UHGV virus genome: UHGV-0145872
Length of the DNA stretch: 41,029 nt
Direction: 5' to 3' (one strand)
DNA from: a virus
Shown: positions 25,455 through 31,730 of the stretch, piece by piece
How positions within the stretch are numbered: the stretch's first letter is position 1
Layout of the letters: every line of letters starts with the position of its first letter
Notes under the pieces: model-generated
The model's database searches: none
What the model saw: the letters and a program-made list of their open reading frames with translations, nothing else
Told to the model about the DNA's origin: nothing
Made by a program: the position numbers and the translations under genes

Positions 25455-25705
25455 TGAAAGAATACCGCTATTCCGGCCCGGCCAGCGGCGTCACGCTGTC
25501 GGACGGAACCGAAATCCTGCTCTGGCCGGGGAAGACGGTTTCCCTGCCGGAGGAGCATGACTACGTGAAGGTACTGGTGGCGCTGAAGCATCTGACGCCG
25601 GTACCAGAAGATACTAAACCCGCCGTCACACCGGCTGTGCAGTCACCAAAGCGCAGAAGCAGCAGTGACAGCGAAGTGAAAACGGAGGACGCCCATGGCA
25701 GCTAA
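25451..25705 (+). CDS. small conserved phage protein (84 aa)
   Basis: ORF translationally coupled between gp37-like gene and sheath gene. Confidence 0.4.
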   Translation: MMKEYRYSGPASGVTLSDGTEILLWPGKTVSLPEEHDYVKVLVALKHLTPVPEDTKPAVTPAVQSPKRRSSSDSEVKTEDAHGS

Positions 25706-27122
25706 CTATCTGCATGGTCCCGAAACCATTGAGGTGGAAAACGGAGCCCGCCCGGTTAAAACGGTGAAATCTGCCGTTATTGGCCTGATTGGTACCGCCC
25801 CGATGGGGGATGTCAATACGCTGGTACAGTGCCTGTCTGAGAAAGACGCAGCGGCATTTGGCAGCCAGTTCACCGGCTTTACCATTCCGCAGGCGCTGGA
25901 TGCGATTTATGACCATGGTGCAGGTACCGTTCTGGTCATTAACGTCCTCGACCCGGCGAAACATAAAACGGCGATCGAGGATGAGGTGGTTACCTTTGAC
26001 AAATCGACAGGGCAGGCCAGACTGGCGCATCCGGTTGTCGCTAATGTGGTGGTGAAAAACAGTGAAGGCAGCACCACCCACACGGCGAACACGGACTACC
26101 GTGTTGATGCGCAGGCGGGTGTGCTCACGAACCTGGGCAAGGCTATTGAGGCCGGTGGCAGCGTGAAGGTGAGCTATGAGTACGCGGACCCGTCGAAGGT
26201 GACTGCGGCGGACATCATCGGCGGGGTGAACAGCGCCGGAAACCGAACCGGCATGAAGCTGCTTAACGACAGCTTCAACCTGTACGGCTATTTCGCCAAA
26301 ATTCTGATTGCGCCGGTGTTCTGCACCCAGAAGAGTGTCGCAGTTGAGCTTATCGCCATGGCAGAGAAGCTGGGCGCGGTAACCTACATTGATGCGCCTG
26401 TCGGTACCACCTTTGCACAGGCTCTGGCAGGTCGTGGCCCGGAAGGCACCATCAACTTCAATACCAGCTCCGACCGCGTCCGTCTGTGCTATCCGCATGT
26501 GAAGGTATATGACCCGGTGACAAACACAGAGCGTCTGGAGCCGCTCAGCCAGCGTGCAGCAGGTCTGCGTGCCAGAGTCGATCTGGACAAGGGCTACTGG
26601 TGGTCATCCTCCAATCAGGAGATTCTGGGGATCACCGGCGTGGAGCGCCAGCTGTCCGCGATGATTGATGACCCGCAGAGTGAGGTGAACCTGCTTAACG
26701 AACAGGGGATCACCACGGTATTCAGCAGTTACGGCAGCGGCCTTCGTCTGTGGGGTAACCGGACGGCAGCATGGCCAACGGTCACCCATATGCGTAACTT
26801 TGAGAACGTTCGCCGCACCGGTGATGTGATCAACGAGTCCATTCGTTATTTCAGCCAGCAGTACATCGACATGCCGATTACTCAGGCGCTGATTGATGCA
26901 CTGACGGAGTCGGTCAACGCCTACGGTCGCAAAATGACTGGTGATGGTGCGGTACTGGGCTTCCGTTGCTGGTTTGATCCGGCCCGCAATCCGGAGACGG
27001 AGCTGGCCGCCGGGCACCTGTTGCTGAGCTACAAATATACGCCACCACCGCCGCTGGAGCGACTGACGTTTGAGACTGAGATCACCTCGGAATACCTGTT
27101 AACCCTGAAAGGGGGCAACTGA
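25695..27122 (+). CDS. contractile tail sheath protein (Mu L-like)
   Basis: 475 aa; followed directly by the tube gene; size typical of sheath proteins. Confidence 0.8.
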   Translation: MAANYLHGPETIEVENGARPVKTVKSAVIGLIGTAPMGDVNTLVQCLSEKDAAAFGSQFTGFTIPQALDAIYDHGAGTVLVINVLDPAKHKTAIEDEVVTFDKSTGQARLAHPVVANVVVKNSEGSTTHTANTDYRVDAQAGVLTNLGKAIEAGGSVKVSYEYADPSKVTAADIIGGVNSAGNRTGMKLLNDSFNLYGYFAKILIAPVFCTQKSVAVELIAMAEKLGAVTYIDAPVGTTFAQALAGRGPEGTINFNTSSDRVRLCYPHVKVYDPVTNTERLEPLSQRAAGLRARVDLDKGYWWSSSNQEILGITGVERQLSAMIDDPQSEVNLLNEQGITTVFSSYGSGLRLWGNRTAAWPTVTHMRNFENVRRTGDVINESIRYFSQQYIDMPITQALIDALTESVNAYGRKMTGDGAVLGFRCWFDPARNPETELAAGHLLLSYKYTPPPPLERLTFETEITSEYLLTLKGGN

Positions 27123-27643
27123 TGTCAAAGATTGAGATAAACCGCATCACGAATGCCAACATCTATCTGGATGGTACTAACCTGCTGGGACGGGCTGAGG
27201 AAGTCAAACTCCCCGATGTCTCCATGATTATGCAGGAACACAAGGCGCTGGGGATGGTGGGTAAGGTGGAACTCCCGGCTGGTTTTGACAAGCTGGAAGG
27301 CGAAATCAAATGGAACAGCTTTTACCGCGATGCGATGCTGTCTGCCGCGAACCCGTACAGGTCGCTGGCACTGCAGTGTCGTTCCAGCGTCCAGCGCTAC
27401 AGCTCGCAGGGGCTGATTGACGAAATCCCGCTGGTCACCTTCCTGACGATTATGTTCAAGAAGAACCCGCTGGGGACGTTCAAACAGCACGAGAACGCCG
27501 AGTTCTCCAGTAGCTTCACCTGCACGTATATCAGACAGGTACTGGATGGTGAAGAGCTGCTGCAACTGGACTATCTGGCCAACATCTTCCGGGTCGGCGG
27601 TGTTGATCAACTGACTGACTACCGTATCAATATCGGGGGCTGA
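27122..27643 (+). CDS. tail tube protein (Mu M-like)
   Basis: 173 aa; immediately after sheath. Confidence 0.7.
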   Translation: MSKIEINRITNANIYLDGTNLLGRAEEVKLPDVSMIMQEHKALGMVGKVELPAGFDKLEGEIKWNSFYRDAMLSAANPYRSLALQCRSSVQRYSSQGLIDEIPLVTFLTIMFKKNPLGTFKQHENAEFSSSFTCTYIRQVLDGEELLQLDYLANIFRVGGVDQLTDYRINIGG

Positions 27644-27645
27644 CG

Positions 27646-27927
27646 GTGAGTGTTGAACTGACGGATAAAGGAGGACGATGTGCGGCACTGGGCATGTCAA
27701 ATGGTACGTGGTTTACCCTCCTTGATATTCCGGGGGTGGAAACCCTTTTTAATACCCGTAAAACCAATGACCCGATTGACTGCACACGTTCAAAGGCCCG
27801 CAAACTGGCGGATTTGATTGAAGCATGGGAGCCTCCCGACCACTGGTTCTCCGGCATCGGCAAATCTGAGGGAAAGACGCTTCTCATCGCTTTCCTGCGT
27901 AACTGCAAGGGGTTTCGCACTTGCTGA
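27646..27927 (+). CDS. hypothetical protein (93 aa, GTG start)
   Basis: ORF between tube and chaperone; no good RBS/start; may not be real. Confidence 0.25.
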   Translation: MSVELTDKGGRCAALGMSNGTWFTLLDIPGVETLFNTRKTNDPIDCTRSKARKLADLIEAWEPPDHWFSGIGKSEGKTLLIAFLRNCKGFRTC

Positions 27928-28024
27928 CATCACAGGGGCTCCGGCCCCTTCTTCTTAATCTCCTTTAATATCCGTCACGCGCTTCTCCCGACATACTGCC
28001 CTGAACTTACACAGGAGCACAATC

Positions 28025-28360
28025 ATGTCACAGACCCCATCCGATACTTTTAAATTGTCTTATCCCTTCACCACTGCTGCAGGCACCAGAATTGAGCTGG
28101 TTGAACTGAAACGCCTGACGGTAAAAGACCTGAAGCAGGTGCGCAAAATCAGCAAAAACCCGGCAGACTGGGACGAACCGCTGATTGCCCGCAGTACTGG
28201 TCTTCTCCCGGAAGATCTCGACAATATGGATCTGGCTGATTACCTGCAGTTACAGAAACGATTTCAGCTCATCACGGGGATGGGTGAGAGCAACCAGGGC
28301 GCTGACGCAGGCGCAGGGGCTGCTGGCGAGATGGTTCCGGTTTCAGCCGGGGGAGATTGA
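28025..28360 (+). CDS. tail assembly chaperone (111 aa)
   Basis: Small acidic protein between tube and tape measure; overlapped by a second frame, the usual two-frame chaperone arrangement. Confidence 0.55.
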   Translation: MSQTPSDTFKLSYPFTTAAGTRIELVELKRLTVKDLKQVRKISKNPADWDEPLIARSTGLLPEDLDNMDLADYLQLQKRFQLITGMGESNQGADAGAGAAGEMVPVSAGGD

Positions 28361-28442
28361 TGCCCTCGATACTGACGATCTGGAGATGTGGCTGGAGCAG
28401 GCTGAAGAGCAAATCAAAAGCGAGTACGGCGACAAATCATAG
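28025..28442 (+). CDS. tail assembly chaperone, frameshift-extended form (putative +1 shift near 28349-28353)
   Basis: Frame 0 ORF (28185..28442) overlaps the 3' half of the chaperone and runs 82 nt past its stop; a GGGGG tract at 28349-28353 just before the stop would allow a +1 slip (GGG to GGG) joining ...SAG to EIDALDTDDLEMWLEQAEEQIKSEYGDKS. Confidence 0.35.
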
Positions 28443-28517
28443 TACAGACAGCCGCCAGTAGCGGCTGTTCTGCGTTATCCCCTCACGTCTTTTCACCTTC
28501 CCCGGAGGTTAACCACT

Positions 28518-31500
28518 ATGTCGGGACAGTTTTCAGTCGGCGTTGTTATCGGCGGGATGATTGGCAGCACATTCCGTTCTGCAATGAGCGGTACCCGCCG
28601 TGCGCTTGATTCCCTGAGCGATACCTCACGCCGCCTGCAGGAACGTCAGAACGCTTTAACCCGTGCAACAGAACGTTATGGTCAACTGGGTTCTTCCCGG
28701 ATGCAGCATCTCAACAGCGAGCTGCTGCGGGTAAGCCGCACCATGGAGCAAATTGAGCGCCAGCAGCGCCGTCTGTCAGCGGCATCCGCTACCAGTGATG
28801 CGCTGAAAGCTAACCGCATGGCGCTGTATGGTCAGGGGATTGAAGCGTATGGCATGGCACAGACTGTTTATCATACGGTTTCCCCTGCCGTTCAGCAGTC
28901 CATGTCTTTTCAGGACAAAATGATTGATATGTCGATCACCGCAAAATATGACAATAAAACGCGGGATGCACTTGCCGGACAGATAAAAGGCTGGGCGCTT
29001 AAATACAATCAGTATCAGGATGAGCTGCAGGAGGCGGTGGGTTCACTCATCAGCGACAATATTGATAATGTGTCAGATATCGGTTTTCTGATGCCGGATA
29101 TTGCCCGCGCGGCAACGGCAACACGCACGTCTGCTCAGGACTGGGCAAAAGTGGCCGCAGTCTGGCAAAACTCCCTGAAAGGTGCGGCCAGAGATTTTGG
29201 TGCCGTTCAGAATATTATGGCTTATGCCGGTGACCAGGGGTCATTTGAAATCCCGGATCAGGTCAAGTGGATGCAGTCCCTGGCCCCAATGATGGCGGGT
29301 CTTGCCAGTGGAAAAGAGGCTGTTGCTGAAATCGGGGCCAGTCTCCAGATAGCAAAAATCGGTGCAGGTTCCACCGACGAAGCAGCCAATAATTTTAAAA
29401 ACTTTCTTACCAAAATTTTTGCCCGCGATACTCAGAAACAGTTTGCTGATCTGGGTATTGATTTGCAGGGATCTATTGCGAGTTATAAAGCTGCGGGGAT
29501 CTCTCCGATTGAAGGGATGTTGAGTGTTATAGAACGTTACCTCAATGCCAAAAGCCCCGAAGCGCTGGCCGGCTTCAAATCAGCCATGAAAATAAAGAAT
29601 GATACGGCAAGAGATGAGGCACTTCAGGCTCTGGCGAAAAACTTTGGTCTGGGCGATATGTTCGCGGATATGCAGGTCATGGCATTTATCCGCCCGATGC
29701 TGGCCAACATGGACAGATATCGAGAGATCCGTGCCGGTGCTCTCAGGGCTGCGGATAACGATTTGCTTGCCAGTGCTTATGATCAGCGGCTGAAATCTCC
29801 CCTTGAAGCCACTAAAACACTTATGGTCAGCAGTCGCGATCTGGCAATTACGCTGGGCGATCAATTAGCTCCATCTTTTATTTCTCTGACTCAGGAACTG
29901 CTCCCACTCATTCAGGGGACAAAACACTGGGTAGCGACTCACCCGCAATTTGTCAGTGGGGCTTTTAAGCTCATCAGTGCGCTCCTTGCGATTAAGATAG
30001 CGACTATTGGTCTCAAACTGGGGCTGAATCTCCTTATTTCCCCCTTTGTGAACGTCTGGAAAACTACTGTTTTACTCCGGACCAACTGGCATCGACTGAC
30101 TACCGCACTCGGAGAAGGTGGCAAATTACGCTGGCTTGTCACTGGATTCAGCCGACTGACCAGCGGAGGACTGAAACTCAGCAAAGTTCTGGCGGGCAGC
30201 CTCGTTCGCGGTTTTATGAGCGCTGCACGTGCCGTTCTCTGGATTGGGCGAGCGCTGATGATGAATCCCATCGGTCTCGTTATCACCGCTGTCGCGACAG
30301 CAGCTTACCTTATCTACCGCAACTGGGGGGCTGTCAGTGGTTGGTTTAAACAGCGCTGGGCTGACATTCAGGAAGCCTTTAACGGCGGCATTGTGGGAAT
30401 TGGTAAGTTGCTGATTAACTGGTCGCCGGCAGGCCTGCTCTATAAAGCCTTTGCGGCTGCGCTGAAATATTTCGGCGTTGCTCTGCCGGCAAAGTTCACC
30501 GACTTCGGTGGCCATCTTATCGACGGTCTGATTAACGGTATCAAAAACAAATGGGGGTCGCTCAAATCCAGTGTAACCGGAATGGGTGACAGCATCAGTA
30601 GCTGGTTTAAACAGCGCTGGGCTGACATTCAGGAAGCCTTTAACGGCGGCATTGTGGGAATTGGTAAGTTGCTGATTAACTGGTCGCCGGCAGGCCTGCT
30701 CTATAAAGCCTTTGCGGCTGCGCTGAAATATTTCGGCGTTGCTCTGCCGGCAAAGTTCACCGACTTCGGTGGCCATCTTATCGACGGTCTGATTAACGGT
30801 ATCAAAAACAAATGGGGGTCGCTCAAATCCAGTGTAACCGGAATGGGTGACAGCATCAGTAGCTGGTTTAAACAGTGCTGGGCTGACATTCAGGAAGCCT
30901 TTAACGGCGGTATCGCGGGAACTGGTAAGCTGCTGATTAACTGGTCGCCGGCAGGTCTGCTCTATAAAGCCTTTGCAGCTGCGCTGAAATATCTTGGTGT
31001 TGATCTGCCGGCAAAGTTCACCGACTTCGGTGGCCATCTTGTCGACGGTCTGATTAACGGTATCAAAAACAAATGGGAGTCGCTCAAATCCAGTGTAACC
31101 GGAATGGGTGACAGCATCAGTGGCTGGTTCAGCGAAAAGCTGGGCATTCATTCGCCGAGCCGCGTGTTTATGGGCTTTGGTGACAATATCGCGCAGGGGG
31201 CCGCCATTGGCCTGCAGCGGACCACTCCGCTTGCAGCTCTGGCCGGGCAGCGAATGGCCAGTGAACTGCTCCCCAGAATGCCCGTGAGCATTCAGGGGCC
31301 AGAAATACGGGATAACACTTCAGGTGTTCGCTTCAGTATGCCGTTGCCCGATATCAATGGGTTTATGTCGTCTGCTAAAAATGCGATCGGAGCCGTAATC
31401 AATAGTTTGTCTTCCATGCCCGTTATTCCGCTCTCCACCCGGGCATCGATTTTACCAGGGCAACGTCTGGCAAATGAGATGACACCGGATGTTCCCCGTA

Positions 31501-31730
31501 TCCCCTCGCCTGAAATCCTGGCTGCCGGATATTCAGGCCGTGGTGCAGCTGCAACCGGCGGTGGAACGTCTGGTGGTATCCAGGTCAGCTTTAATCCTCA
31601 GTTTTTCCTCAATGGCAGGGAAACCACAGCGCCTGCAGGACTGACTGGTGCCCTGAATATGAGTCTGCATGAGCTGGAAAAAATGCTGGAGCGTCTGCTG
31701 GCTCAGAAACAACGTAAGGAGTACCGCTGA
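28518..31730 (+). CDS. tail tape measure protein (1070 aa)
   Basis: Large alpha-helical protein downstream of sheath, tube and chaperone; GGAGG RBS; contains an internal tandem repeat. Confidence 0.85.
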   Translation: MSGQFSVGVVIGGMIGSTFRSAMSGTRRALDSLSDTSRRLQERQNALTRATERYGQLGSSRMQHLNSELLRVSRTMEQIERQQRRLSAASATSDALKANRMALYGQGIEAYGMAQTVYHTVSPAVQQSMSFQDKMIDMSITAKYDNKTRDALAGQIKGWALKYNQYQDELQEAVGSLISDNIDNVSDIGFLMPDIARAATATRTSAQDWAKVAAVWQNSLKGAARDFGAVQNIMAYAGDQGSFEIPDQVKWMQSLAPMMAGLASGKEAVAEIGASLQIAKIGAGSTDEAANNFKNFLTKIFARDTQKQFADLGIDLQGSIASYKAAGISPIEGMLSVIERYLNAKSPEALAGFKSAMKIKNDTARDEALQALAKNFGLGDMFADMQVMAFIRPMLANMDRYREIRAGALRAADNDLLASAYDQRLKSPLEATKTLMVSSRDLAITLGDQLAPSFISLTQELLPLIQGTKHWVATHPQFVSGAFKLISALLAIKIATIGLKLGLNLLISPFVNVWKTTVLLRTNWHRLTTALGEGGKLRWLVTGFSRLTSGGLKLSKVLAGSLVRGFMSAARAVLWIGRALMMNPIGLVITAVATAAYLIYRNWGAVSGWFKQRWADIQEAFNGGIVGIGKLLINWSPAGLLYKAFAAALKYFGVALPAKFTDFGGHLIDGLINGIKNKWGSLKSSVTGMGDSISSWFKQRWADIQEAFNGGIVGIGKLLINWSPAGLLYKAFAAALKYFGVALPAKFTDFGGHLIDGLINGIKNKWGSLKSSVTGMGDSISSWFKQCWADIQEAFNGGIAGTGKLLINWSPAGLLYKAFAAALKYLGVDLPAKFTDFGGHLVDGLINGIKNKWESLKSSVTGMGDSISGWFSEKLGIHSPSRVFMGFGDNIAQGAAIGLQRTTPLAALAGQRMASELLPRMPVSIQGPEIRDNTSGVRFSMPLPDINGFMSSAKNAIGAVINSLSSMPVIPLSTRASILPGQRLANEMTPDVPRIPSPEILAAGYSGRGAAATGGGTSGGIQVSFNPQFFLNGRETTAPAGLTGALNMSLHELEKMLERLLAQKQRKEYR
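30342..31124 (+). repeat. 3 x 261 bp in-frame tandem repeat inside tape measure gene
   Basis: TGGTTTAAACAGCGCTGGGCTGACATTCAGG... unit starts at 30342, 30603 and 30864; copies 1 and 2 appear identical and copy 3 differs at a few positions; encodes three 87 aa repeats. Confidence 0.85.

Follow-up and report, generated by a model that had tools for sequence, protein, structure and literature searches.

CGA_UUU_C, with a conserved UUU_C, as the probable +1 frameshift site of a gpE/gpE+E'-type tail assembly chaperone gene in a BcepMu-like prophage

The gene for the tail assembly chaperone in the BcepMu-like prophage described here and the reading frame that overlaps its 3' end probably form a gpE/gpE+E' pair, in which, judging from comparative sequence evidence, the long form would be made by a +1 shift at CGA_UUU_C (28259-28265; positions are those of the window, that is, the whole stretch of 41,029 nucleotides that was analysed, and the genes and sites described lie on its + strand). 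An earlier note on this DNA had recognized a tail chaperone followed by an open reading frame at 28185-28442, in the +1 (equivalently -2) frame, and had proposed that ribosomes slip from GGG to GGG on a GGGGG tract located two codons before the chaperone stop (28349-28353). The coordinates and frames are as it described them, but the slip site is likely to be the UUU_C tetranucleotide, about 29 codons upstream of the G-run. The presence of a G5 run and of an open frame past the stop is no more than would be expected by chance: the + strand of the window carries 36 runs of at least five G's, roughly one in every 1.1 kb, and beyond the chaperone stop the -1 frame likewise stays open for 33 codons. 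The peptide of the +1 frame, on the other hand, is conserved beyond what chance would give, and this conservation begins well upstream of the G-run.

The window corresponds to an E. coli BcepMu-like prophage with 99.8% identity to PhiKM, an Escherichia phage of Bcepmuvirus; of 5426 complete E. coli genomes, 641 contain the segment. The chaperone, 111 residues long, is encoded in the 0 frame at 28025-28360, with a GGAG 8 nt 5' of its ATG and a 3' end that reads GCC GGG GGA GAT TGA. Its identification as a tail chaperone, ventured in the earlier note, was borne out by the match of residues 8-81 to PF10109 (Phage_TAC_7, the P2 gpE/Mu gp41/gp14 chaperone family; E 5.5e-21, with a score of 74.8 bits where 25 is the cut-off), the only Pfam family matched by the protein, and by its position. 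The neighbourhood comprises the sheath gene (25695-27122, PF04984 and PF17482), the tail tube gene (27122-27643, PF04985, E 2.9e-53), a 93-aa ORF, the tape measure protein gene (28518-31730, 1070 aa, PF10145, E 1.3e-20, annotated as such in records) and a gpU-like gene; the overlapping frames are found between tube and tape measure genes, as in a chaperone of the lambda G/GT type, and the tape measure protein is the expected binding partner. The chaperone itself begins with an N-terminal domain of the P2 gpE type and ends in a tail of low complexity. In E. coli, RefSeq names it only 'phage tail assembly protein' and annotates no join.

Several other traits of this region deserve mention. The 93-aa ORF (27646-27927), which separates the tube from the chaperone gene, gave a sub-threshold match to DUF7739 (24.7 bits, the cut-off being 27); it is kept in a Klebsiella relative and missing in the Salmonella relative L005, in which the tube gene is directly followed by the chaperone gene, and it may be an inserted accessory gene. 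Between this ORF and the chaperone gene, at 27934-27949, there is a terminator-like hairpin (AGGGGCTCCGGCCCCT, with a T-rich tail after it), placed within what is expected to be a single late tail operon. The tape measure gene contains, at 30334-31129, a unit of 261 nt (87 aa) repeated three times in tandem (96% matching), and the PhiKM record has a sequencing gap at the position of this repeat. The gene spans 3213 nt in the window, compared to 2466 nt for its annotated counterpart in Klebsiella phage KP12 (KP12_259, called only 'tail protein'), and a longer tape measure gene could result in a longer tail.

In a tblastn search with the fused protein as a query, phages of Klebsiella, Salmonella, Ralstonia and Pasteurella gave a separate match to the extension, in a frame other than that of the chaperone. 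The set of relatives was composed of 80 from IMG/VR, 129 loci from IMG/VR and GTDB genomes, BcepMu and the loci of phage records, and frames were assigned by means of HMMs of both domains. Both were found in 215 loci, and the E' domain lay in the +1 frame with respect to the chaperone domain in 194, in the -1 frame in 20 and in frame in a single one (L080). The +1 direction, which the earlier note had regarded as unusual, is therefore supported by the relatives, although it is less novel than implied, because a -2 shift has been verified for phage Mu and shifts of -1, -2 or +1 are used in different tailed phages (review PMC5009743). The conservation of the second frame, which that note had put forward as a check, was also confirmed, as the +1 peptide is kept in those 194 loci. 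Purifying selection acts on E', and neither a conserved start codon nor a conserved Shine-Dalgarno sequence was detected in the relatives' +1 frame; the second frame of the overlap is, in short, conserved without a conserved start of its own. The ORF in the -1 frame of the window (28306-28461) was discarded, having no family matches and not being conserved in relatives.

The -1-type clusters, from Pasteurellaceae and relatives, present a different element: GGGAAAG (G_GGA_AAG) was found in 7/7 of them, 13-19 nt downstream of the alignment column of TTT_C, and TTT_C in 0/7. No heptamer of the X_XXY_YYZ kind would give access to the E' frame of the window. Three Neisseria- or Kingella-type loci (L130, L188 and L216) show the +1 arrangement, with TGG or ACC preceding UUU_CGC, and their E' (ADVAWWFGWSVQ...RQIKA) is closest to the -1-type E' of Pasteurellaceae (L007, L150, L200 and others), so the frame relation seems, from these sequences, to have been switched within one closely related E' lineage.

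The extent of both frames in the relatives, together with the pattern of substitutions, brackets the point at which the shift takes place. The +1 frame opens, in four clusters, just three codons 5' of a conserved Phe (F80 in the window), while in other clusters the 0 frame closes 8-10 codons past the Phe codon; a +1-frame Trp located 3-6 codons 3' of the Phe is conserved in most lineages. In window coordinates, the last codon with 0-frame synonymous variation is that at 28265, the first ones with +1-frame variation are those at 28275 and 28278, and the +1-frame Trp at 28281 is invariant; synonymous substitution switches, hence, from the 0 to the +1 frame between 28265 and 28275. At the three codons 5' of the Phe there is no possibility of re-pairing, and their +1 translation is not conserved, which argues for the Phe codon being the slip point and not merely a Phe encoded in both frames. 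TTT_C is the only conserved slippery element within the permitted interval.

It is unlikely that the +1 slip occurs elsewhere between 28266 and about 28292, for instance at GGG_A (28277-28280, ACG GGG AUG), or at lineage-specific positions such as GGG_G (28316-28319). The G-runs at 28276-28279 and 28316-28319 would allow re-pairing of a Gly-tRNA, the Ralstonia phage YO107_2 carries GGG GGA GAA upstream of LLARWF, and sites need not match across lineages, as illustrated by a cluster with UUG_C or CUG_C described below. However, GGG_A is not conserved, since relatives have ACT GGG CTG or CTT AGC ATG, changes that are synonymous in the +1 frame. Moreover, the synonymous variation at the +1 codons 28275 and 28278 and the invariance of Trp 28281 indicate that the +1 frame is apparently read before both G-runs. 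The GGGG at 28316-28319 (GCA GGG GCT) was rejected as a candidate, because relatives present GGG CCT, GGG TCT or GGG ACT, again synonymous in the +1 frame, and selection in that frame is already evident upstream.

The conservation of UUU_C is expressed at synonymous positions. In the window, TTT_C is in frame at 28262-28265 and the +1 frame, open from 28185, encodes E'. The motif was found in 187 of the 194 '+1' loci (21 of 22 clusters at 70% identity) and TTC in none, and the conserved slippery sequence of the chaperone overlap is TTT_C, not a -1 heptamer. The hosts of the clusters with TTT_C include GC-rich ones, whose neighbouring genes use TTC four- to ten-fold over TTT (TTT/TTC in neighbouring long ORFs of 26/105 for BcepMu and 2/23, 5/28 and 4/26 for others). 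The chance of TTT being used so consistently was calculated, as the product of the locus-specific P(TTT), to be about 1e-10, a figure that assumes independent synonymous sites and is approximate because the lineages are related. Five other conserved columns, encoding Asp or Glu, showed mixed codons in the same lineages (14/7, 14/8, 7/15, 9/10 and 8/14). The codon 3' of the UUU always begins with C (CAG, CGC, CGG, CAA, CGT or CTG), and this C appears to be selected as a nucleotide, because it would remain untranslated in the long product and the codon to which it belongs encodes Gln, Arg or Leu. CAG, the A-site codon in the window, is not usually counted among the rare codons of E. coli.

The codons that precede the UUU vary by lineage, including CGA and UCC, and when the preceding codon encodes Arg it is always the minor codon CGA (57/57 distinct contexts, 7/7 clusters). 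The probability of an invariant CGA was estimated to be about 5e-8, which likewise assumes independent synonymous sites and is approximate, as the lineages are related. This invariance suggests that the recoding signal includes the preceding (E-site) codon, and we infer that CGA may act through the weak pairing of its tRNA in the E site. The 66 nt after the site were folded in 22 lineages in search of a downstream RNA stimulator, with z about 0 in comparison with shuffled controls, and no Shine-Dalgarno-like element was found upstream of UUU_C in the window. An exception to the motif is provided by seven Pseudomonas-type loci forming one cluster (L128, L138, L139, L144, L148, L166 and L181; column about 1408-1420), which have UUG_C or CUG_C (GAG GTG TTG/CTG CGG) at the column, preceded by a Shine-Dalgarno-like GAGGUG, and yet possess a conserved, diverging +1 E'. 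This indicates that UUU is not absolutely required, or that another mechanism operates in that lineage.

Quite improbable is the absence of any fusion, with E' being a separate small protein translated from an internal start or the prophage no longer making the long product. The records of BcepMu gp42 and phiE255 gp16 do annotate the +1 ORF as a gene of its own, and the +1 frame of the Salmonella subgroup contains an ATG (MALLARWF). Nevertheless, the clade of the window (QAQGLLARW) lacks this ATG and its sole in-frame GTG (28284) is not conserved in relatives; the lack of a conserved start or Shine-Dalgarno sequence in the +1 frame and the purifying selection on E', both noted above, also oppose this explanation. 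In addition, independent initiation would not explain why TTT_C and CGA are invariant at their synonymous positions, and the homologous P2 and Mu pairs are annotated as experimentally established fusions.

The homology of the extension was established through its family. The +1-frame ORF delimited from stop to stop, with a TTG start, covers 28185-28442, and its translation is proposed only from 28266 on, yielding an E' extension (28266-28442) of 58 codons plus a TAG stop. When a profile of the +1-type E' was aligned with hhalign to the -1-type gpE', a probability of 99.4% (E 3.7e-21) was obtained, with the alignment starting at T11 of the window's +1 peptide, that is, at about 28293. The -1-type E' proteins match PF06528 (up to 3.6e-14), and so do 7 of 22 family representatives (best E 6.8e-10), whereas the window peptide alone gave a weak match (E 0.0016, 16-18 bits, below the gathering score of 23); a C-terminal E' domain of the PF06528 type is recognized, accordingly, through the family representatives and the profile alignment.

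The G-run was evaluated against the same relatives. The chaperone frame stops before the position homologous to the run in 60 of 109 distinct relatives, the run is missing or 3' of the 0-frame stop in 100, and a run of at least five G's with a still-open 0 frame was found in only 9, so the conservation that the earlier note had asked to be checked is not observed. The 0 frame of most Klebsiella- and Enterobacter-type relatives closes at GTG GTT TAG, 11 codons upstream of the run, a stop produced by +1-synonymous changes (TTC to TTT, CGG to AGA). The position of the run is elsewhere occupied by CCT/CCA GGG GAG or by CCG/CCC AGT GAA, also +1-synonymous changes, and the GGGGG of the window is read here as a by-product of the +1-frame Pro-Gly-Glu codons CCG GGG GAG. 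Synonymous fractions, scored from pairwise codon differences in 64 distinct close relatives, were 0.48 for the 0 frame and 0.10 for the +1 frame upstream of 28262, 0.12 and 0.36 at 28266-28348, and 0.09 and 0.38 after the G-run. The stretch 28266-28348 evolves, therefore, like that past the run, and the substitutions across 28275-28348 are synonymous in the +1 and not in the 0 frame.

Some assemblies contain single-base indels that fuse both frames (L080, about 1800-1830, and the database proteins P0001-P0009, P0012 and P0015). These fusions are probably sequencing errors, because their junctions are scattered, mostly at G5 or G4 homopolymers in read-level assemblies, and some of them, two among the database proteins, carry double, compensating indels; in L080, a one-base deletion adjoins the G-run. 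Natural in-frame fusions were consequently rejected as markers of the junction, the scattered homopolymer junctions fitting indel errors, and fused assemblies would mislead any attempt to use them to place the shift site.

Slippage on the G5 run at 28349-28353, either +1 (GGG to GGG) or, in a Mu-like manner, -2 (GGA to GGG), is very improbable. It would give a product of 138-139 aa with a junction of FQLITGMGESNQGADAGAGAAGEMVPVSAG(G)EIDALDTDDLEMWLEQAEEQIK and the 29-aa acidic extension contemplated in the earlier note, EIDALDTDDLEMWLEQAEEQIKSEYGDKS; an extension of this kind would indeed be added by a slip at the run, but the one predicted here has 58 residues. The run is in phase (GGG GGA) two codons 5' of the stop, the verified -2 shift of Mu likewise takes place on a G5 run (C GGG GGC GAG), and L080 and the database proteins P0003-P0005 and P0007-P0009 are fused in frame exactly at the run. 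Against it stand the early 0-frame stops, the run being broken by +1-synonymous changes and the 25 codons upstream of it evolving as +1 coding sequence, in addition to the sequencing-error pattern of the database fusions. The G-run product would also be deprived of 18 of the approximately 48 residues that align to true gpE', including the LLARWFRFQP part of the domain with its WF-x-F motif. The run was rejected as the shift site on account of the 0-frame stops, the +1-synonymous changes and the domain homology, and a Mu-like -2 shift is discarded because Mu gp41 belongs to another family and the phase of its run differs.

In the preferred model, that of a +1 shift at CGA_UUU_C, most ribosomes would read 28025-28360 and produce the 111-aa chaperone, and a minority would shift. 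The peptidyl-tRNA-Phe (anticodon GAA) on the P-site UUU (28262-28264) would re-pair with UUC (28263-28265), to which its pairing should be at least as good as to UUU, and C28265 would be skipped. The predicted product, of 138 aa, would consist of the 80 residues M1-F80 (28025-28264) and the 58-aa extension encoded by 28266-28439, joined as ...DYLQLQKRF|SSSRGWVRATRALTQAQGLLARWFRFQPGEIDALDTDDLEMWLEQAEEQIKSEYGDKS, where the second part is the whole E' translation, with ...LQLQKRFSSSRGW... as the predicted junction peptide. If lambda G/GT and P2 E/E+E' are taken as a model, the N-domain common to both forms would be the part that binds the tape measure protein, and tube subunits would be recruited by E', with the ratio of the short to the long form being set by the low frequency of the shift.

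The arrangement of BcepMu (L090, 6603-7364; AY539836, 24602-25363) is described otherwise in GenBank, where gp42 figures as the counterpart of lambda G and gp43 as the slippage product derived from it. Homology identifies gp41 as the chaperone and 'gp42', in the +1 frame, as the E' homologue, encoding ...LLLVLKIQPSEIAELDMDDYW...; from the sequence, the shift site is likely to be UCC_UUU_CGC. The gp15/gp16 pair of phiE255 appears to have the same arrangement as BcepMu gp41/gp42.

It may well be, with the evidence tilting slightly that way, that N_UUU_C is a selected +1 signal across a large P2-gpE-type family in BcepMu-like phages and prophages, whose hosts include Escherichia, Klebsiella, Salmonella, Pectobacterium, Pseudomonas, Burkholderia, Ralstonia and Neisseria. 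The signal would then be the minimal cassette also of influenza PA-X and YopN-TyeA. The chaperone family would have switched between -1 (G_GGA_AAG, U_UUU_UUG) and +1 shifting at what is apparently the same Phe-codon boundary, and the annotation of BcepMu gp42/gp43 as G/T would be wrong. A conserved UUU_C site for this chaperone family was not found in the literature searched, and neither the site nor the joined product appears in the phage records retrieved, those of the BcepMu group, or in the representative E. coli RefSeq record inspected, so that the 138-aa product is missing from every record examined.

Tail-chaperone frameshifting is a textbook case of recoding, in which nearly all defined sites are -1 heptamers. 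If the proposal is correct, a family-wide UUU_C, conserved at synonymous sites, with an invariant CGA and with neither a stop codon nor a Shine-Dalgarno stimulator, would offer a clean natural bacterial system for +1 slippage. It would also mean that the shift of a single homologous gene pair can reverse its direction without loss of the two-product logic. On the practical side, gene callers and frameshift predictors that search near the stop codon or for homopolymers would choose the wrong site.

Among known systems, the +1-prone UUU_Y sites of E. coli argI, Yersinia YopN-TyeA and influenza A PA-X share with the window a P-site UUU followed by a pyrimidine, with tRNA-Phe re-pairing on UUC. 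They differ in that they are found in single genes or eukaryotic viruses, whereas the UUU_C described here is conserved over a whole phage gene family. The +1 shift of PA-X takes place on UCC_UUU_CGU (PMC3498833), and the UCC_UUU_CGC of BcepMu is nearly that cassette, while in the window UUU_C is preceded by CGA and followed by CAG.

Mu gp41, with its verified -2 frameshift on C_GGG_GGC_GA (annotation in AF083977), resembles the window in being the tail chaperone of a transposable myophage, with an extension in the +1/-2 frame and a G5 run near the 3' end. However, it matches PF23746, gave no BLASTP alignment with the window protein, and its extension carries no PF06528 signal. In Mu, moreover, the GGG codon is formed by the last three G's of the run and is followed by CGA, whereas the run of the window has the phase GGG GGA, is not conserved and lies inside E' coding sequence.

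The likeness to lambda G and GT is of another kind, as these are two products with a common N-terminus, made in a fixed ratio, whose genes are found just upstream of the tape measure gene. Lambda G has no sequence similarity to the window chaperone, and the direction in the window is +1; the lambda heptamer, G_GGA_AAG (PMC5009743), is that used by the 20 -1-type relatives.

P2 gpE and gpE+E' have in common with the window the PF10109 N-domain, a homologous E' domain and the place between the tube and tape-measure genes. The annotated -1 site of P2, G_GTT_TTT_TG (GGT_TTT_TTG), includes what, by eye, is the apparent counterpart of the Phe codon, near the chaperone C-terminus, and the W/F-x-W/F aromatic motif lies 25 residues away from the shift in P2 and 22 in the window. 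The shift of P2 is, however, a -1 shift on a tandem-slip heptamer, and that of the window would be a +1 shift on UUU_C, a tetranucleotide read by a single tRNA; the 0-frame tail past the shift amounts to 31 codons in the window and 6 in P2. Since both would shift at apparently corresponding Phe codons, the place of the shift, at the domain boundary, seems to be conserved and its direction to differ. Frameshifting in tail chaperones in general, with lambda G/GT, was reportedly treated by Xu, Hendrix and Duda in 2004. By function, the locus of the window would be a device of the lambda G/GT or P2 E/E+E' type, and by sequence it corresponds in both domains to P2 gpE/E', with a predicted +1 shift on UUU_C in place of a -1 heptamer.
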